From NCBI GenBank assembly GCA_900314375.1, contig OMVC01000094.1:1-33976 (forward strand): a DNA stretch of 33,976 nt, in the 5' to 3' direction. Below the pieces are notes generated by a model. It saw only the letters and a list, made by a program, of their open reading frames with translations. It had not been told where the DNA came from and did not search any database. Origin of the DNA: an uncultured bacterium (GTDB taxonomy: Bacteria > Cyanobacteriota > Vampirovibrionia > Gastranaerophilales > Gastranaerophilaceae). Shown piece after piece: positions 12,101 to 33,880 of this stretch. The translations under genes were made by a program, and so were the position numbers. Within the stretch, counting starts at the first letter, position 1. The number at the start of each line of letters is the position of its first letter.

Positions 12101-15100
12101 CGCTATAAGCAATTGTTCATTTGTTGCAATTGATAATCCGACAGGAATTACATTTGATTTTTCTGTTGATGTAGCAGAAATCTTAACATCTTTTGCTTTT
12201 AAAATATTGCTGTCTTTATCAATTTCTGCAATAATATCATTTCTATATACATTTACAACAACATCACCGTTTACCCCAACACCTGACTGTGCGGTTGTTA
12301 TATCAAACGTACCTGCAACACCAAGATTATCACTTTTGGAATTTGCTTTTACTTCAATATTATCACCTGCAGTAATATTTGATTTAATTATTTTTGAACT
12401 TATCGTATCGTGAATATAATCTATATCTGCACCACCTGCAAAAGAAAATGCTCCGCCGTCAGTTCCGGCAACAATTGCTCCGGCAATTGCCCAATCGGAT
12501 AAATCATTATCCGCATCAGATAATATCGTTAATTTCCCGATATCTTCCAAAGTAGAATCTTTTATATATGTTGAAATTTCATTTTTTATATTGTTATAAT
12601 TTAATGCCGCACCTGCAGATACTCCGTTTTGAGCACCATAAACAAGTGAACCACCGCCTGCTATATTATAAATATCAACATCACTTTTTGCATTAATGCT
12701 TGTATCAATACTTCCCGATTTTCCTTCATCCATACTGATTGTTGAATTATTAATATATGCTTCAATGGTTGGTTTTAATGTGTTTATAGAAGCAGAGCCC
12801 CCGACTGCTGCTTGAAAACCTTTACCTTCCGCTGCTGTATTTACGGCAGCACCAGCACCAATACCTATATTTAATATCCAATTTTTATTGTTTGCATCTA
12901 TTTTTAATTCAGGATTTTCACCCGAAAAAGTAATTGTTGAACCGTCTATATAAGATTTTACGGAACCTTCTTGTTTATAAATATTAACAGCAGCACCAGC
13001 TCCTACTTTTTTTGATTTTGCAACCGTACCGCCTATTGTAATATTTTTTGACTCTCTGTTGGAATTTACAGTTAAAGTATTTCCTACATTTATGTCTTGC
13101 GAATTTTTTATTGAAGATTCAACATTTGTATTGTCAGTTGTAATATCAACAGCACCTGCTAATGACATTGAAAATTGACTTTGAAGTGCGGTTAAATCAT
13201 TCCCGACAGGATTTCTCATATATTCATCTTCGCCGTCAAACAGATTTCCAAAGATATTTTCATCATCTTGAGCATCATTTGCATTTTGTTGAACATCTTC
13301 TACTTCTGCTTCCTTTTGGGTTACTCCGCCTGAAAATGCTGCTGCTATTTCAACATCAATTTTTTGGTTATATGTATCGGAATTAACCGTTAATGTATCG
13401 GATGAATCAATAATAGCATTATCTATTGTTGCCTTTACGTTTCTATCTATTTCTGTTACATTTACGCTTGCCCCGACCGCAACACCTTGAGAGTTTTGTT
13501 GTACTGTATTATTTATTTCTTCATATTGAGAAGTCCAAGCACCTTGAGCAATTATATTGGTAATTTCATCATTTGCTTCTCTTATATATTTTTCATCTCC
13601 GGAAGCATCTGCATTTTGCTCTTTCCATTTTATTTGACTTGTGTCATCATCACGTTTTACCTTACCGCCTGTTGTTTTTATATGCGCTTTTCCTGCATTA
13701 ACAGATATATCTTTTGCAGTAATCGAATTTTCTCCTGTGATATTTGATATTGTTGATAAAGTATCACCTTTGATTTTTTGAACATTTATGGAACCGTCTA
13801 TTCCGAATTTTTCGGATTTTGCACCGGTCATTGTTATACTCATATACGATTGTTCGGTCGCACTATCAACATTTATACTGCCTTTTTGTGCATCCACGAT
13901 TGAATTATCGATTTTAGCAGTTGTATTATTTGTATAATTGTTCCATAAAACATTCGCTCCTAAACCGAATTTTCCGCCATAGACAGTCGGTTCGTATTCC
14001 CAATCGTATTGTCCCGGAATTTTGTAATTGATTTTTTGTATAAGATAATCAAACATTCCTAATCCGTTATACCCGATAACAGAATTAACTGCATTAACCG
14101 TAAGTTTTCCTTCGTCTGCATTACCTTCTGCCGGATTTATCGTTATACTTGATCCGTTTTGAATAATAGCATTTGTATTATTGTTTACTTCACTATAAAC
14201 AACGGAACCTGATACAGCAGCATTCGAGCCAATAGAATTTGACTGTGCCATATTGTTAAAGAAACCCGAAAGTCTGAATTTTGGTTTCAAGTTATTGTAT
14301 GTAGTTCTGATATTTTGTTCCGCAACACCCGTCATCTCAAATGCCGGTGCCGAGTTATCAGTTTTTGGAGTAATTACATCTGCACTCCATTTTCCGTTTG
14401 CTTCCGAAGCAAATTCCCCACCGACATAGAAACTGTCTATCCCTTGTATTGCAAAAGGTAATTTTAAACCAAAAGTAAGTTTCCCGACATTCATCGGCAA
14501 TTCTGTTGTGGCATCAACTGTTACATTATCAGCTTCAATTTCAGAAGAATCTATAATAGCATTTGTTGTATTATTTTGTTGATTATAAATTACGGATGCG
14601 GACAGCCCGTATTGTCCTTCGCCTTGAGTATCAGTGGTAGCAGCATTTGAAAGTAAATCTATGGTATTTGCCTGAACCGTAACATCACCTGCCGCCACTT
14701 TTGAATTTTCTATCTTTGCGGTCGTATTATTATTAGTATAATTTAAAACAACAGCTCCGCCTGCTTCTGCAAAAGGATTCTCATCTTCACCCGCAGTAAT
14801 AATATTTTGCCCTCTTAATTTTTCAAAAATGTTGTGGTTAAAATATTTCTTCTGTGAATCTTTCAGAAAATCCTGCATGTTTTTATCAAATACTTCGGGC
14901 TTTTTGACCATTTTATCGTCAATACTGCCATCTGCAGCATTTTCCGTAACATTTAAACTTTGAGCAAGAACAACGGTATCTTCTTCTGTATTGATTTCAC
15001 TATCTTTTATAAGAGCCGTAACATTATTTGAAGAATGATTCAATATTGCAACAGCAGAAACTGCAGAGTTACCATGAGATTCTTGATTATTAGAATCTTT

Positions 15101-16480
15101 TTCGCCGGCAACAGCTTCCATTGTGACTTCTGCCGAACTGTTAGCCAAATTTGTCGCAAATACGGTTAAATTTTTTGTGTTTGCCGTTGAATTTATTATG
15201 GAAGCTTCGGTTTCAGTTTTAACATTGTTGTTTAAAATCATTGCCAAAAAACCGTCTTCTAATTTTATCGAAAATAAACTGTCATTATCAATAACAATTG
15301 AATTTTCATTTGTTGAAACTGCCGTAACATCAATATCACCTTTTGTTACATTTAATGTTGAACCGGTAACAATTGCTTTTGATATAGTTTCCGTACCTAA
15401 ACCATACATTCCGACAGGAAGAAACATTGCTAACAGTCCGTTATTTGCATCAAGACTTGAATATGCATCTGTTGAAATTTCAACATTTTTGGCTTCTTCA
15501 GAAATTGCATTAATTGTGGAATTCTCAATATTTACGGTCGCTGAACTTCTTGCACCTTCAAAACCTTCGTAAAAATCCGTACTAAAATACTTATCAAGCG
15601 TTGCTTCATCACTCGTTACAAATTTAATTAAAGACGGAGTTAAAAAATTCGCATTCTCTTCGGTTTCGGAAGAACTTTCGGCATGAATATAAACTGACAA
15701 ATCAGGATTTTCTGAATTCGATGCAGTAGCCTTTAATGCATTAATCGTTGAATTTTTGATTGTTACATCCGCATCCGCTTTTCCGGCAACTCCCCATAAA
15801 GAAAAAACAGAAGGTGTGTCACCGTCAAATATATCCATCAAAGCGCCGGCAATCCATCGACCGTCATCTATAATATTCTCTGTGTTCAGTTTTTTGTTTT
15901 GACTTGCATTTGCGGTTATTTTAACCGTATCACCCGTAATATTTGAATCTTCAACATTTACTTTTGCTTCCACTAAATCAATTCTTTCTTGTCTGTCGAC
16001 CTTTGCGGTTGAAGAAATATCTACTTCATTTGCTCCGATATCAGCTTTTTTAATATCAACCTTTGCTGTTATATTTCCCGCAGCATCCCCAAGTACCAAT
16101 TCTTTATTTGCAACAATCTGAATTTTACCGTCTGAAAGTGCAAAGCCATTTGTATTTGTAATATTATTAGAAACCAAACTGTTAAAGGTTGCTTCTGCCG
16201 CACTCAAATCAGAAAAAGTATTTTCGCCGCTGTAACCTGCAATAATACCTGCCCTATTTGCACCGTCACCAATTTGTATATCACTTCCGTATAAATTTAC
16301 TTCTTCTCTTGCCAGAATTTTACCATTTATTATTATTTTACCGTCGGAAGACTTAATTAAATTATTGTACTCACTGTTATTATATTGGTATTCTTCCAGA
16401 CCCCCGACTTCGTATGCTGACTTAAAGGCATTGTAACTGTTTTGATTCGGAGTCAACACCGATAATGAACCGACATTCAA
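188..16480 (-). CDS. Giant TpsA / filamentous-haemagglutinin-like exoprotein, main body (5,430 codons). It continues in frame from the TPS-domain ORF at 16484..16852 across one TGA.
   Basis: One uninterrupted 16.3 kb frame in visibly AT-rich DNA. The translation is dominated by G/N/S/T/I/V/A-rich beta-helix-type repeats (e.g. ...GAAVNIYKQEGSVKSYIDGSTI..., ...AANVGVNVIDNTVKAYASGNI...) typical of FHA/TpsA passengers. A TPS domain precedes it in the same frame, and a TpsB gene lies 160 bp away. The annotated TTG start at 16478-16480 is probably just an internal Leu codon of the longer gene. Confidence 0.85.
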   Translation of the reverse strand: MNVGSLSVLTPNQNSYNAFKSAYEVGGLEEYQYNNSEYNNLIKSSDGKIIINGKILAREEVNLYGSDIQIGDGANRAGIIAGYSGENTFSDLSAAEATFNSLVSNNITNTNGFALSDGKIQIVANKELVLGDAAGNITAKVDIKKADIGANEVDISSTAKVDRQERIDLVEAKVNVEDSNITGDTVKITANASQNKKLNTENIIDDGRWIAGALMDIFDGDTPSVFSLWGVAGKADADVTIKNSTINALKATASNSENPDLSVYIHAESSSETEENANFLTPSLIKFVTSDEATLDKYFSTDFYEGFEGARSSATVNIENSTINAISEEAKNVEISTDAYSSLDANNGLLAMFLPVGMYGLGTETISKAIVTGSTLNVTKGDIDVTAVSTNENSIVIDNDSLFSIKLEDGFLAMILNNNVKTETEASIINSTANTKNLTVFATNLANSSAEVTMEAVAGEKDSNNQESHGNSAVSAVAILNHSSNNVTALIKDSEINTEEDTVVLAQSLNVTENAADGSIDDKMVKKPEVFDKNMQDFLKDSQKKYFNHNIFEKLRGQNIITAGEDENPFAEAGGAVVLNYTNNNTTAKIENSKVAAGDVTVQANTIDLLSNAATTDTQGEGQYGLSASVIYNQQNNTTNAIIDSSEIEADNVTVDATTELPMNVGKLTFGLKLPFAIQGIDSFYVGGEFASEANGKWSADVITPKTDNSAPAFEMTGVAEQNIRTTYNNLKPKFRLSGFFNNMAQSNSIGSNAAVSGSVVYSEVNNNTNAIIQNGSSITINPAEGNADEGKLTVNAVNSVIGYNGLGMFDYLIQKINYKIPGQYDWEYEPTVYGGKFGLGANVLWNNYTNNTTAKIDNSIVDAQKGSINVDSATEQSYMSITMTGAKSEKFGIDGSINVQKIKGDTLSTISNITGENSITAKDISVNAGKAHIKTTGGKVKRDDDTSQIKWKEQNADASGDEKYIREANDEITNIIAQGAWTSQYEEINNTVQQNSQGVAVGASVNVTEIDRNVKATIDNAIIDSSDTLTVNSDTYNQKIDVEIAAAFSGGVTQKEAEVEDVQQNANDAQDDENIFGNLFDGEDEYMRNPVGNDLTALQSQFSMSLAGAVDITTDNTNVESSIKNSQDINVGNTLTVNSNRESKNITIGGTVAKSKKVGAGAAVNIYKQEGSVKSYIDGSTITFSGENPELKIDANNKNWILNIGIGAGAAVNTAAEGKGFQAAVGGSASINTLKPTIEAYINNSTISMDEGKSGSIDTSINAKSDVDIYNIAGGGSLVYGAQNGVSAGAALNYNNIKNEISTYIKDSTLEDIGKLTILSDADNDLSDWAIAGAIVAGTDGGAFSFAGGADIDYIHDTISSKIIKSNITAGDNIEVKANSKSDNLGVAGTFDITTAQSGVGVNGDVVVNVYRNDIIAEIDKDSNILKAKDVKISATSTEKSNVIPVGLSIATNEQLLIAAANVGVNVIDNTVKAYASGNIGSGDDAQKINNLTVSAYDETTLYSRGGTLALASADAVVNIAGSVNVDKIDKTVEAKIKDADVKANGDVSVLATSINSLGGTKDENNQYTRDDVTTDAYRDKMLTKNENGDYDGLSLNNSFQNWNMFYDLAVGSNISVGGAGIGKVIENTVTAEVSASTVESNTLSIASSDYSVKNIIAGSIAASGKAAAGLQAIYTRDNSTTNALITNGSNLTIADKIEMLANNKKDSYEILIAGSGAGKGVINANVVLNNVTDKATAKIDNTSTDNEIKAGQIKISADEDINSSHIIVTAGGASNLALSVSPTINNYDMTTQSIISATTIKDASIDMNAQSKLGTLDISAGVAGVGQGVSGVGNAIKNSYTNKVKSYIDGATIDTEKAININGNSIIDANNWLATVAVAGQGVSIPVNVLLNYVNSELEAGIKNSKIENAGAITINTNKDKEDVLKNNAIIIGLAGQGVNASVNVIKNEYTNTVSSYVDNTQSTKIDSIDVNAYSKRNTNNINVGIGFTGEGANLMANAVVNELKSTTRSYVDAKSKTLNITNGLNLEAKDIAAARNTLATGKGAGLGAAVGADINLYYSDNLAKTEILSGDSGQINAGSAALNSELLNATNDVSGSVSFGLAAIPVDVQIVEIGKRTGTYSALEQDYINKANSLIPDKLKNTATTPSSDVKTGAISGINGNLKTTNNISINSESKLNGLDKDGNLVDKFKFEKVNINATGATIGVAIKNIQLANNTISEIAGGKVESSGGNVSLNSKSGADVELVYREVEVSGARASGGSVVYNNTAETLAQVKDATVNANDIEINSKSTNKSFVDATNVVVTGADIVTVDLAEVKDTNKTSAIITGNTNIDAKGKLTLHSTTNTDVTSDRLTIPVRAASLVDVTRNEANVNTITRALIENVNGEINAQNLDIITDYDKMSVFSKSNVVAVSAASLAAYNDCGSYMNADFKSGIDSPSALTLNVADTTNITTAKDNGTEGLISKGRMHGVDVDIAGLYEGAFSKAENDAKSVTVLNVKNHTSNNLNINQYLKSTAEAIANNTKVSGLGVAAIAADSKDTSTMTLDISGTNTITQNAVINATHNSNTISDLSGFSFGLLVSGARLRIDSDMKSNTTGNIGGNFDAGSAKITFDTIRNSTLSKSSGSGGFINVSNPEAINNLTGTSVLNIKDITSDDKKGINNWSISNKSTNTFDVTTSNGSGGFINVAVDNLKLTFDTSTNTNIENSNINSTGQVKFEVENKGIIKDQATNVGGGFVAVSTNDVKNNYNSGAKLSLKNTKINAKDIDLKTSSDLRTKDSDYIEYAGTAGGFVAVQDLDLKNTLTQSSEIDIQNSILEATKDIKLHALTSSFFKQKIESNGYGFVSVPRAYNNLEVTNNNKITLDNSSKIKASDELDVSFDSNNTLAVRTVSDARNFEGKPSAYANLYFTVNNTLDNSGSMEAGNLVDINFMNNSINALTQYAHSECHAAVASTNEGTELKRTINNTLNVNSNADITSGKDVEITYSSGKNNVSSTVSWKTVSYALFGIPISDSDSYSVDKPVDNYVLKNNGKIVAGQGNNKYMKINRDGSIDKETLKGFYDDDYILSDGEIISGEIIKQRTLDSIQIEINNINESLEEISQTLISLNETLIDFEDKKDTIQLKIDEINNLINNGAILTNDKQDAQGNSDFNTIIQNDIKALIVSDSDDTKITETQYNTIMTSYNNKLAEIEAQNTAIFNHNAKPENIDNQQPYIEVPTITEFIETQDYGLSDAQKTTISNGYDSVNNNVSMTEKCGFSVYQNSTGKYVAVTTPTGTGNAQTCEELTQFNNAIEDINAQMEPYQDERTSALNTHAMLQANRVSLTSQYNDVYNTASSAYDQHSGSYSITFNDIEPKDAHISVDGAYNHNINGNGIFSVASNGLKVDNYSTRTLLFNDLNIDSVANRSGLIIGGKNHSEFADKTQAVSGAQAYLYVHNRPGHTSFDNLPTSGVHYKSDGSGISGITINNYYDINHPFASTFDITEPTTRSDIYIIGSVNTSGDLNIWNESGGIMIANDSGINSGKMSLISTNNAVVWLIYNETDTTPINIKTNDYIFAQNGFSILTNKDVNIQGTIETGYSNRNITITEDMIKPENLIYDPTSGETNLINLGGDKVSFYLNDTNNIKAIYKDGQIYLYNLPEDITDPLVSISDVNVSLSGKVKMANGLQNIIIDNKTNAQLNVANIYNKQFRGGMTPENINKTEDGEIILNTVDHATTNITSNGKLSLNGIIQNSITTNYNDFPKEKGILNITANNGLEVKPQTKLIDHIPTTVDSILSNGKTTITLNNGQGDINGKITTTGELNISNKGTGALNLNSNISNDASRNVYPETLISEGIINISNEGTGALNIFGDIDETEGAVKVQSNAQTNITGSIYDKKGNIDITSKGLQSSNESKIVTDEGDITITNNDSNLDLKGYISSESGNVSIQNNGTSASIAGFISDNKGDLTIRNTKGDMTISSIILHNSTNRNAEGMISIINDPTGGKLDIQNKVQTFGIGKTEQDKTTAILIDNQSDTNGMSISSEITARIGDIIIKNANDNLSTAGMISNYEKGGVSITNSGLDYTNTASILVKEGDVAITNNGTNGVGKLLLGGSINNQKGNTTVSNKGAITEVSGTIDNVGGNTTITNTNGLTRIVGDVTNKGGDISVINSGDFTEITSAIDNEAGSIHISNSKGNLNITDTAKITNTTENEDDSITIANAGGILNLKGDVESTDKGDIEITNTGNGKANIESNVVANEGDIDISNSNAGELNISGSIIDYNGNIDVTNASTDGTTIASTGKITNVKGDTTITNDKGDLTVQQGAQIVNTESGNIVAENKGGKFTISGLFKHAEIGNITVKNSGNKELDITSTGQVLAANGNINIQNSNDGAMNIAGHITDENGKIDIINSSKDGAEISGTILDKEGDTTIFNAGGALDISGNVADNIGDIKVVNNGADGTNISGVVLAKNGDTTVYNTKGGLDISGNVVDNKGNLDITNNGEDKASISGIVLAKEGDINVYNSNDGALEISGTVKDENGKISITNDSKDGTLISGNVTNVKDDTKITNNDGDLTITETGKVTNTQGGDIDVENNGAKFTVAGLIKHIGDAIGNIFVNNKGDKELEVATTGRIETSNGDIDIDNSNDGGIVVAGFVGSDMGVTDINNTSQDGINITTSGVVNNKDGNIEISNTGANGIDIQGSVKTDKQDIKITNKDSDIRIGEYDSDNDNYINAVAGNVVINQTNGNILNNITDPTSTNTHQNHDLGNPDHAYKTLIAAGNNLTINAKDGDIGSTSHANPGFSINADTRDYTESINVNVGGDLVARATNENETDSRLVNIRAKDSDLKVKDVTSDGNVMLTAADWKQADTRPTPKNDESYFKGYSILNTADVDDAAVSGQMISVIASDNIGSADKKFIYNQDTASNPKSSVSFEAENDINLTGRANSSNETKIYQLVSKHGDIDFDMESDAVIKEITAGKGLRLTQKAQNLTIYNLGTSYSSAGQTGEKFDDMLYPHDDIVYGDSSDKSGESAIPNYAIIRVLDAMDTPNRGDSNLKIYSAYVRGNHGENTQYYPDGSRLADYTLMADNIYANSDKAPDSTISTKENPNGYKQTDKSYDLSGFGIEDGKKYSAQGLNAYGKGDTLSLDVLGVDSDVVNDVVKNPQRNSYNEQKPVDNVPDKFKNDQNRLPFYGYDFRTDNAVISVNDYAPENRGVSFDTLYADNAYINTNDTNLGVQDGYINNYAELRNRDKIAVVDNDYRRIVRPADIQLYTGKTGSFALDLNESINMHTTAPTVYNNPHMLVNGYHSAWNFVNREFKENKDLIDRIDESTALDERRYDESLKRISMRFDTTEDDGLQSNVEIYDISTTGALIRNDKKLKRGKKTTINLKFDDVDINVTAKVVNTKGNMAGVEFVDMPDDVANKILYRYMQQADSMKSNLTTSSL
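191..523 (-). other. PilZ-like domain forming the last ~111 residues of the TpsA
   Basis: ERRYDESLKRISMRFDTTEDDGLQSNVEIYDISTTGALIRNDKKLKRGKKTTINLKFDDVDINVTAKVVNTKGNMAGVEFVDMPDDVANKILYRY. It contains KRxxxR (KRISMR), then DxSxxG (DISTTG) after 16 residues, and the ...GVEF... strand near the end. This is the classical PilZ motif order. Confidence 0.6.
2370..5130 (-). repeat. Array of about 45 short (~19-22 aa) beta-solenoid-type repeats inside the TpsA, with a higher-order ~770-nt duplication
   Basis: Recurrent units such as GDITITNNDSNLDLKGYISSESGNVSIQNNGTSASIAGFISDNKGDLTIRNTKGDMTISS. Long blocks recur about 768 nt apart: ...TNVKGDTTITNDKGDLTV...KFTISGLFKH... near 3480-3630 and ...TNVKDDTKITNNDGDLTI...KFTVAGLIKH... 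near 2715-2860. Confidence 0.85.
7075..7235 (-). other. Heptad-like coiled-coil segment interrupting the beta-helical passenger
   Basis: DSIQIEINNINESLEEISQTLISLNETLIDFEDKKDTIQLKIDEINNLINNG. This composition differs sharply from the flanking G/N/T-rich repeats. Confidence 0.55.
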
Positions 16481-32993: not shown

Positions 32994-33027
32994 TAATCTG
33001 GGAAAGAGTAGTCGGAACTCGAACTGA
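32994..33027 (-). other. Degenerate copy of a tRNA 3' end (T-loop TTCGAGT plus acceptor-like tail ...CTCTTTCCCA followed by GATTA)
   Basis: The minus strand reads TCAGTTCGAGTTCCGACTACTCTTTCCCAGATTA. It resembles the tRNA-Leu 3' end at 33916-33940. It shares the 9-mer taatctggg (plus strand) with the copy at 33706-33714. I found no 5' half or cloverleaf. Confidence 0.4.
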
Positions 33028-33190
33028 TTTTGACACTGTATTTGAGTTTTTAAAAATGTTGATTGATGCTGAGCTGAGATTGTAACGATTGCCTAATATT
33101 TGCAAAAAATTAGGCAATTTTGTATGGAAAAAATACTTTATATAAATATAGTGTGTAACAGAAAGTTTACGTGTAAATGGAAGGTAAAAA

Positions 33191-33589
33191 ATGGATGCAA
33201 TAACAAGTGTCAGAAACAATTATAATGTATCTTGCAAAGCAAGAGCATTAAAATTTCATCAAAATGTTCCGCAAGAAATAAGAACGATGGTGACAGAAAA
33301 TCCCGCTGTACAAAGATTTATCAATGCTGATAAACCGAATACTTTAGTACAACAATTCTTAAACTTATTTAGAAAAAGTAAAAAATTAAATGTTGTATAT
33401 GATGATCATTACTATTGTTCTCGTCTTGGGATTACCGAAAATCAAGGAGAAAAGTTAAGTTTTTTATTTGATGGGAAAAAGAAAGTATTTGAATCAACTA
33501 ATACAAGAATTGGTATTAATAGAACAAACACTCCTTCATTGCAAGAACAATTAACGAATATGAGAGACCTTGAAGCAGAATTAAGATAA
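33191..33589 (+). CDS. Hypothetical protein (132 aa), no recognisable domain
   Basis: GGAAGG sits 7 nt before the ATG, and a strong terminator follows at 33672-33702. Confidence 0.6.
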   Translation: MDAITSVRNNYNVSCKARALKFHQNVPQEIRTMVTENPAVQRFINADKPNTLVQQFLNLFRKSKKLNVVYDDHYYCSRLGITENQGEKLSFLFDGKKKVFESTNTRIGINRTNTPSLQEQLTNMRDLEAELR

Positions 33590-33671
33590 AAGTGAATCTG
33601 TTAGTTTGGTGAAACCCAACAAAATACAAAGGTAGGTTGAACAAAAACTGTTAAAACAATGTATTAATATT

Positions 33672-33702
33672 AAAACAGACCGATTATTAATCGGTCTGTT
33701 TT
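33672..33702. terminator. Bidirectional intrinsic terminator AAAA-CAGACCGA-ttattaa-TCGGTCTG-TTTT
   Basis: Perfect 8-bp GC-containing stem flanked by an A-run and a T-run. Confidence 0.8.
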
Positions 33703-33710
33703 AGTTAATC

Positions 33711-33847
33711 TGGGCATGAAGAGACTCGTCTTGGATTTGCTCCACGCTCGGAAAGTTTCGCCTTTGAACCTTCGGTTCAAGTCTGCTCAATTTCCTCGCT
33801 ATCCGGACTAACTTCGTGTCGTCCGTCCGCAAATCCGCCGAACTCCC
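33711..33847 (-). ncRNA. Candidate structured small RNA: tRNA-Leu-type T-arm and acceptor 3' strand whose T-loop is interrupted by a 110-nt GC-rich insert
   Basis: The minus strand reads GGGAGTTCG [GCGGATTTGCGGACGG...GAGCAAATCCAAGAC] GAGTCTCTTCATGCCCA, whereas the intact tRNA reads GGGAGTTCGAGTCTCTTCATGCCCA. The insert is about 52% G+C by hand count. It is closed by an 8-bp stem GGATTTGC/GCAAATCC and contains hairpins TTGAACC-GAA-GGTTCAA and CGGAC-N12-GTCCG. Terminators bracket the element on both sides. Confidence 0.4.
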
Positions 33848-33880
33848 AAAAAGGGATTCTCGTCACACTCTATACACAAA

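Follow-up and report, generated by a model that had tools for sequence, protein, structure and literature searches.

A folded, protein-less cassette in the T-loop of tRNA-Leu(UAG) is probably a non-autonomous, gene-preserving mobile element of Gastranaerophilaceae

Introduction

Group I introns of bacterial tRNA genes lie in the anticodon loop, are longer than about 200 nt and have a P1-P9 core. Integrative elements and CIMEs that target tRNA genes bring a replacement tRNA 3' end, leave the gene intact, produce a direct repeat and stack in tandem. Other described elements are short structured repeats, such as REP/REPIN sequences with their RAYT proteins, MITEs and IS1397-type elements, or fold as single strands, such as the PATEs and omega-RNAs of the IS200/IS605 group. 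Bridge or seek RNAs of IS110/IS1111 elements need an adjacent DEDD recombinase, and retroelements (SINE-like, group II, retron) need a reverse transcriptase.

Here we describe a locus of an uncultured Gastranaerophilaceae bacterium at which a copy of the T-arm of tRNA-Leu(UAG) is split by a G+C-rich, structured insert. The original prediction, made from the letters of the DNA, held that the insert does not belong to the described class of tRNA introns. We agree: group I introns occupy the anticodon loop, whereas this insert of 111 nt enters the T-loop between positions 57 and 58 and matches no Rfam family. The locus instead probably represents the right-hand junction of a small cassette that enters tRNA genes without breaking them.

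Results

A split T-arm copy behind tRNA-Leu(UAG)

The window, i.e. the whole stretch of DNA that was analysed (33,976 nt), contains the following features at and near the split T-arm, all on the minus strand.

33916-33976, minus strand: 3' two-thirds of tRNA-Leu(UAG), a 5'-truncated Rfam tRNA hit; the contig end cuts the gene
33932-33916, minus strand: tail copy 1 (G57 to discriminator), the last 17 nt of tRNA-Leu(UAG), read as cassette-borne
33881-33914, minus strand: proximal hairpin and T-run that end the tRNA transcript, read from the sequence, which differs from relatives, as part of the cassette
33848-33876, minus strand: 5' arm, an inverted imperfect copy of the tRNA acceptor 3' strand and T-arm, then a T5 loop
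33839-33847, minus strand: 9-nt sense copy of the T-stem 5' strand and TTCG (T-loop positions 54-57), an exact match to 33940-33932
33728-33838, minus strand: type-3 structured module of 111 nt, defined by the alignment of 62 distinct copies and covariance model R1
33711-33727, minus strand: distal copy of the tRNA 3' end, an exact 17-nt repeat, read as the displaced native end at an attR-like junction
33672-33702, minus strand: distal hairpin and T-run, conserved with its flank in two metagenome contigs and read as the native tRNA terminator
32998-33027, minus strand: degenerate third copy of the T-arm and end of tRNA-Leu, its T-loop uninterrupted, recognised from the sequence

The insert that splits the T-arm copy measures 111 nt, one more than the 110 nt originally counted, and one G is shared at the junction. 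Once it is taken out, the T-arm and the 3' strand of the acceptor are exactly those of the tRNA. The restoration of the neighbouring tRNA-Leu end to the base was thus correctly foreseen: the 17 nt at 33932-33916 recur identically at 33727-33711, and the 9-nt copy is exact as well. A hand count of about 52% G+C for the insert is borne out by the computed 52.3%, compared with 32.8% for the whole window. The unit read as inserted spans about 205 bp here (33932-33728) and contains no ORF.

ARAGORN reported no tRNA over the window because the contig end cuts the gene. Since the missing 5' part was found on contig C1 of the same assembly, tRNA-Leu(UAG) is intact, and the assembly evidently broke within the repeated tail. 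Rfam, at gathering and at permissive thresholds, matched only the neighbouring truncated tRNA-Leu (33976-33916) and nothing in 33711-33880, and no self-cleaving ribozyme model (hammerhead, hairpin, twister, HDV-like) matched within 33500-33976 at E up to 10. Between them, ARAGORN and Rfam place the insert in no known RNA family. A scan of the minus strand between 33700 and 33900 found no promoter-like site. The two terminators predicted to flank the insert are visible as hairpins with T-runs, but a consensus terminator scan flagged neither of them.

Several other features of the window deserve mention. The degenerate third tRNA-Leu end (32998-33027) bounds an islet of about 0.7 kb with a 132-aa ORF (33191-33589, plus strand) that has no Pfam family. 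On a metagenome contig (L154, 1-350) this degenerate tRNA-Leu end stands upstream of a cassette with the window's distal tail; judged by its sequence, this permuted order would suit a cargo-bearing unit in tandem or circular form. A stretch of about 45-60 nt at 33094-33151, which includes a short hairpin, has dozens of matches in same-genus genomes at 75-94% identity, recurs several times within this genome and is a separate short repeat or conserved regulatory site. Nearly half of the window is taken up by a single ORF of 5430 aa (188-16480, minus strand).

Related cassettes behind other tRNA genes of the genome

A search of the whole assembly brought up two further copies of the insert, one at 79% identity and one partial. 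We then scanned all 38 genes found by ARAGORN in the assembly (37 tRNAs and one tmRNA). G+C-rich elements of 90 to 130 nt start about 60 to 100 nt past the end of the tRNA and close with a 13-19-nt copy of the 3' end of the same tRNA. At least 12 of about 39 tRNA genes are trailed by a module that ends in a copy of their own 3' end: Gly(UCC), Gln(CUG), Val(UAC), Lys(CUU), Arg(UCU), His, Leu(CAA), Leu(CAG), Val(GAC) and Gly(CCC), to which Leu(UAG) of the window and Asp are added. Two units stand in tandem behind Leu(CAG), and at several loci tail and terminator are duplicated almost perfectly. Spare T-arms lacking a module were not seen anywhere in this genome, and no tRNA end was repeated over more than 19 nt.

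By sequence, at least four types of module can be distinguished in the genome. Types 1 to 3 start with GCG, end with (C/T)AAGAC, have a closing helix beside tandem G.A motifs and are inserted between T-loop positions 57 and 58. The type 4 module differs and enters a few bases further along.

A conserved, strand-specific fold with fixed ends

The module of the window (33838-33728, minus strand) starts with GCGG and ends with CAAGAC. More than 80 loci came from a pattern scan that covered one genome per species, and 62 distinct copies were taken from them for alignment. Nearly all titles of the matching records name Gastranaerophilales or Melainabacteria; the few pattern matches in other phyla are chance, and the module is absent there. 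A head-to-tail array of the module alone (L095) fixes its ends exactly, and many unrelated flanks also support them. Duplication of the target at the module ends amounts to at most 0-1 nt.

The consensus fold consists of a closing helix P1, a hairpin P2 with a variable loop, a long arm P3-P4-P5 with two tandem G.A motifs and, at the 3' end, five unpaired nucleotides, AAGAC. Unpaired junction bases are conserved across the 62-copy alignment. All four helices of the original prediction are present, three of them with compensatory changes in relatives. In the alignment, 97.1% of the cells are paired and 20 of the 32 pairs changed on both sides, counts that overstate the number of independent events because the copies are related. 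Compensatory cells numbered 312, against 82 in shuffles and at most 57 in slid-partner controls, and none of the shuffles of the module alignment reached the observed pairing values. Despite the relatedness of the copies, the compensatory pattern across five helices is clear. On the tRNA-sense strand G.U pairs outnumber A.C pairs by 41:14, which indicates that folding takes place on this strand, either as RNA or as single-stranded DNA. Under DNA parameters the fold holds as well (z = -2.7). Covariance model R1 scores 120.5 bits at the copy of the window.

Native and inserted parts of the tRNA-Leu(UAG) site

The tRNA-Leu(UAG) site is empty in two genomes of the same genus (G005 and G011), where a single hairpin follows the tRNA. 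In G005 the first six bases of the trailer are the same as those of the window's distal trailer. The proximal hairpin of the window differs from the hairpin behind the same tRNA in these empty-site relatives. Elsewhere the site is occupied by a type 1 module stacked with a type-4-like one (G004) or by a type-1-like module (G019). Two near-identical metagenome contigs have the window's distal tail and downstream flank, identical over the stretch searched; before this same tail, one carries a type-1 module and a different proximal hairpin and the other (L154) a third, composite module. As different modules precede one and the same distal tail with its flank, and as the site can also be empty, we read the distal tail and terminator as native. 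From these sequence comparisons we conclude that the inserted unit most probably comprises the proximal tail, its hairpin, the inverted arm, the short T-stem/TTCG copy and the module. Cassettes turn over rapidly at this site. At tRNA-Leu(GAG), a comparison of three genomes shows the proximal hairpin and the 5' arm changing together, and two of the genomes have similar sequence past the distal tail.

The near-perfect duplicates of tail and terminator at several loci fit a duplication of the target at insertion better than a terminator borne by the element. Both processes may operate, with duplication at the first insertion and later exchange of whole cassettes between strains. At three loci (L010, L042, L052) the distal spare tRNA end has a CCA that the adjoining functional tRNA gene does not encode. 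We considered a retro-copy of a mature tRNA and rejected it: the CCA pattern is inconsistent within this genome and no reverse transcriptase was found. Native distal ends explain CCA in distal tails equally well.

The inverted arm and the fold of the whole element

According to the original prediction, neither a 5' acceptor strand nor D and anticodon arms are evident upstream of the insert. This is right only in part, as the stretch does derive from tRNA sequence: it copies the T-arm and the 3' strand of the acceptor imperfectly and in inverted orientation. In relatives, too, local alignments match the stretch before the short T-stem copy to the tRNA end in reverse complement. In the window, GA occupies the centre of the inverted T-loop, where the true complement would be TC. 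Many cassettes have NN-GA-GAA in the inverted T-loop: the NN complements T-loop positions 59-60, and the GA replaces the TC that would complement positions 57-58. In an automated tally the matching NN was present in 11 cassettes, compared with an average of 3.4 and a highest value of 10 among the shuffles. The tally is noisy, and the complementarity of arm and T-loop is suggestive only. In the tRNA-Asp cassettes the arm can be read as antisense to the tRNA 3' end, in some copies reaching into the encoded CCA. A separate proposal, that the 5' arm is a degraded 5' half of a tRNA, was dropped: in five of the six scored loci the alignments did not exceed those of shuffled sequences.

In the minimum-energy fold predicted for the whole element of the window, the tail is paired with the arm, which also forms a small hairpin with the T-stem copy, and the module is a domain of its own. 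This fold is modestly better than shuffles (z = -2.1). According to this model, the folded strand could imitate the target T-arm with a G.A/A.G mismatch at the joining point.

Contexts and distribution of the module

Sites with a split T-loop lie behind tRNA-Leu (three isoacceptors), Asp, Gly and Arg, and there are further loci with a His-type tail. The module also occurs away from tRNA genes: in the loop of a common short hairpin repeat, in a G/C-rich three-segment repeat and in short tandem repeats. At tRNA-Asp it is inverted relative to the tRNA in three genomes. The covariance model matches 66 of the 86 sampled genomes of the same family and two of the five of one other family, and has no match in the remaining sampled families of the order. 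Carriers have between 1 and 31 matches each, this genome two. This patchy, multi-copy distribution is that expected of a mobile element.

Two genomes with many copies deserve mention. One (G078, L163-L176) has about 29 copies, and in it the module lies in the loop of a short hairpin repeat inside the long N-terminal leaders of type IV pilin-like frames; there it is antisense, open in two frames and located just upstream of the conserved pilin N-terminal motif. In the other (G015, L014-L024) at least 13 copies lie inside a larger repeat unit with its own inverted repeats, which is often found at contig ends and behind small ORFs.

A myovirus contig from IMG/VR (L183), which encodes tail sheath, tube and fibre proteins of the Mu/P2 type, contains three modules. 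One of them (3760-3990) lies between the sheath and tube genes, with a copy of the tube gene's ribosome-binding site and first nine codons on either side. The gene end is thus duplicated and the gene stays intact in the phage too. Between these two copies there are three synonymous third-position differences and a short indel in the untranslated part; as far as their sequences suggest, they look as if they came from different lineages. The other two, variant modules arranged in tandem at the end of the fibre gene (8960-9201), supply its stop codon. The carriage of modules on a phage contig provides a route between hosts. A blastn search of phage and plasmid records gave no match.

Search for a mobilising enzyme

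None of the ORFs neighbouring the window copy has a recombinase or integrase domain, and no neighbouring ORF recurs in 61 loci, searched up to 8 kb around the module. A conserved protein neighbour had to be discarded as a candidate, as the only large ORF cluster from these 61 loci consists of frames that read through the module itself. In the 97% complete draft genome we found no match to RVT_1, TnpB, serine recombinases or IS110 (PF01548). The tyrosine recombinases (PF00589) of the genome are two of Xer size and two short ones, one of which shares its contig with a stretch resembling a DNA methylase motif. A single RAYT-like Y1 gene (contig C180, 1-600; L152) is cut by the contig end and flanked by different, GTAG-headed hairpin repeats that are also found elsewhere in the genome. 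We rejected RAYT/Y1 as mobiliser, as Y1 was not found in three genomes with 26 to 31 copies of the module. A TnpB omega-RNA, in which a scaffold would be followed by the flank as 3' guide, was likewise rejected (no TnpB, no fixed target motif). The R''/R' core consensus of integron attC sites, which depend on an IntI integrase, showed no fit to the module ends when compared by eye. An autonomous relative with the same ends was not found in the 61 loci or in phage and plasmid records in a non-exhaustive search, and from IMG/VR we saw only the passive module copies of the one myovirus contig.

Discussion

We regard it as likely that the split T-arm is the right-hand junction of a non-autonomous, protein-less and gene-preserving cassette that folds as a single strand and has entered the T-loop of tRNA-Leu(UAG). 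Along the tRNA, the cassette would consist of a replacement 3' end (from position 58), a terminator, the inverted arm, the T-stem/TTCG copy and the module, whose 3' end AAGAC would abut the displaced native tRNA end and the native terminator. The tRNA gene stays whole because the cassette brings a new tRNA end. Among the three explanations offered by the original prediction, a miniature element that targets T-loops came closest: the element is discrete, multi-copy and patchily distributed and has fixed ends. It also occupies sites other than T-loops. Against our reading stand the fruitless search for a mobilising enzyme, the near-perfect duplicates of tail and terminator at several loci, the noisy tally for the inverted arm and the modest z-score of the whole-element fold; no circular or excised form was seen either.

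How such a cassette could enter its target can be outlined as a model. A single strand of DNA or RNA would fold into a three-way junction in which the inverted arm pairs with the split T-arm and the tail. The module would then emerge exactly at 57/58, opposite a G.A/A.G mismatch, and the fold would mimic the T-arm region of the target and mark the point of joining. The joining itself would be done by a trans-acting or host function. Cassettes once formed could spread among strains and phages through ordinary homologous recombination, with the conserved tRNA gene and the repeated tail as homology arms. A bolder version of this model would make the cassette a nucleic-acid-programmed integration device in which the fold, and not a sequence-specific integrase, directs a generic host enzyme. 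We consider this version possible but rather doubtful. It would predict that swapped arms retarget the element to another tRNA or hairpin, and a choice of target programmed by a fold would, if true, be a new principle.

The insert could alternatively belong to a small-RNA gene in which the tRNA-like T-arm and 3' end serve as a scaffold for stability or processing and the 111-nt domain is functional. The strong conservation of the fold including its unpaired junction bases, the bias towards the tRNA-sense strand, the hairpin and T-run after the tail, and a tail that stays identical to the tRNA while the module helices diverge between genomes would all suit such a gene. However, there is no promoter-like site at 33700-33900 (minus strand) and a terminator-type hairpin lies just upstream; related genomes have an empty site, near-identical strains have unrelated modules at the same site, and the number of copies per genome varies from 0 to about 30. 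Copies are also inverted with respect to the tRNA, antisense in pilin-like leaders or arranged in tandem arrays, and Rfam has no match. We therefore consider a tRNA-scaffolded small RNA unlikely, and 'novel small RNA', the label under which the insert was originally put forward, is not the best one. Another explanation would reduce the locus to a scar, namely the decayed attR of an integrase-bearing island or prophage at the T-loop of tRNA-Leu with 111 nt of inert sequence. Tyrosine integrases reportedly integrate at T-loops as a habit, the tRNA 3' end is directly repeated, and the third, degenerate copy 0.7 kb further on bounds an islet. The decayed att site of the original prediction has its counterpart in the attR-like junction beside the displaced native tRNA end, but the junction is not decayed: the 111 nt are conserved, with compensatory changes in 62 copies, and recur behind many tRNAs with fitted arms as well as away from tRNAs. 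With neither an integrase nearby nor a spare T-arm without a module in the genome, we judge a mere scar to be very improbable.

An intron-like or ribozyme element that inserts into or splices from T-loops at the RNA level, with fixation in DNA as a secondary event, would account for the precise ends, the little or no target duplication and the hairpin-loop sites. The compact multi-helix fold with tandem G.A motifs and the head-to-tail multimers, which resemble rolling-circle products, also point in this direction. A likeness of the internal loop formed by arm and T-loop to the hairpin ribozyme was considered and discarded: no model matched, and the cleavage motif that such a ribozyme needs is absent from many target T-loops. 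Against such an element stand the absence of any Rfam ribozyme or intron match even at E = 10, a size of 111 nt that is far under that of group I or II introns, the lack of a reverse transcriptase in the genome and the occurrence of both orientations relative to local transcription. Moreover, the interrupted copy is not a full tRNA, so that splicing would serve nothing. This explanation appears to us highly unlikely. The cassette that enters tRNA genes as DNA remains the reading that we prefer.

If this reading holds, a large share of the tRNA genes of gut Gastranaerophilaceae bear cassettes that leave the essential genes they enter unbroken. At tRNA genes, cassettes interrupt assemblies, as in the window, where the contig ends inside the repeated tail, and their spare tRNA ends can pass for prophage att scars. 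They also add unannotated structured DNA or RNA that is carried by phages as well. Arms fitted to each tRNA in an element with no visible recombinase prompt one to ask what selects the target and carries out the joining, and a cassette family that is abundant, short and easy to synthesise makes this question experimentally tractable.

A full-text literature search found no description of the element, and its position is best judged by comparison with its closest known relatives in kind. With the integrative elements and CIMEs that target tRNA genes the cassette shares the replacement 3' end, the intact gene, the direct repeat and the tandem stacking. However, its length is only about 200 bp, and no integrase lies within or close to it. 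Unlike tRNA islands, one module serves many tRNAs with fitted arms and non-tRNA sites in addition, and the conserved folded module lies directly at the junction. Like REP/REPIN-RAYT sequences, MITEs and IS1397-type elements, the module is short, non-coding, present in multi-copy bursts and often located in loops of hairpin repeats. It differs from REP/REPIN sequences in being a multi-helix junction with conserved unpaired bases and no GTAG head instead of a simple palindrome. Y1/RAYT was not found in the three burst genomes, and the copy number of the module does not follow the presence of Y1. Also in contrast to REP or MITE elements, the cassette duplicates gene ends on entering essential genes.

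PATEs and omega-RNAs of the IS200/IS605 group resemble the module in being strand-specific and folded as a single strand, in a duplication of 0-1 nt and in the order of a scaffold followed by about 17 nt of flank. The 5' flanks of the module, however, end in many different tetranucleotides and show no conserved target of 4-5 nt, its ends pair with each other and do not form separate subterminal hairpins, TnpB is lacking and Y1 is unlinked. The DEDD recombinase that IS110/IS1111 bridge or seek RNAs depend on has no counterpart in the genome (no PF01548 match), nor does the reverse transcriptase of retroelements (no RVT_1 match in the 97% complete draft). CTX-phi and the IMEX, which use XerCD, are similar in regard to the proposed mechanism only: inverted and sense copies of a site could fold to a duplex mimic with an unpaired centre, and apart from two short ones the host encodes only tyrosine recombinases of Xer size. 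Here, by contrast, the target is a tRNA T-arm and not dif, no phage genome is attached and the module interrupts the mimic. None of the closest known kinds fits the module as a family, which we read most readily as mobile DNA of a non-autonomous kind at tRNA genes.
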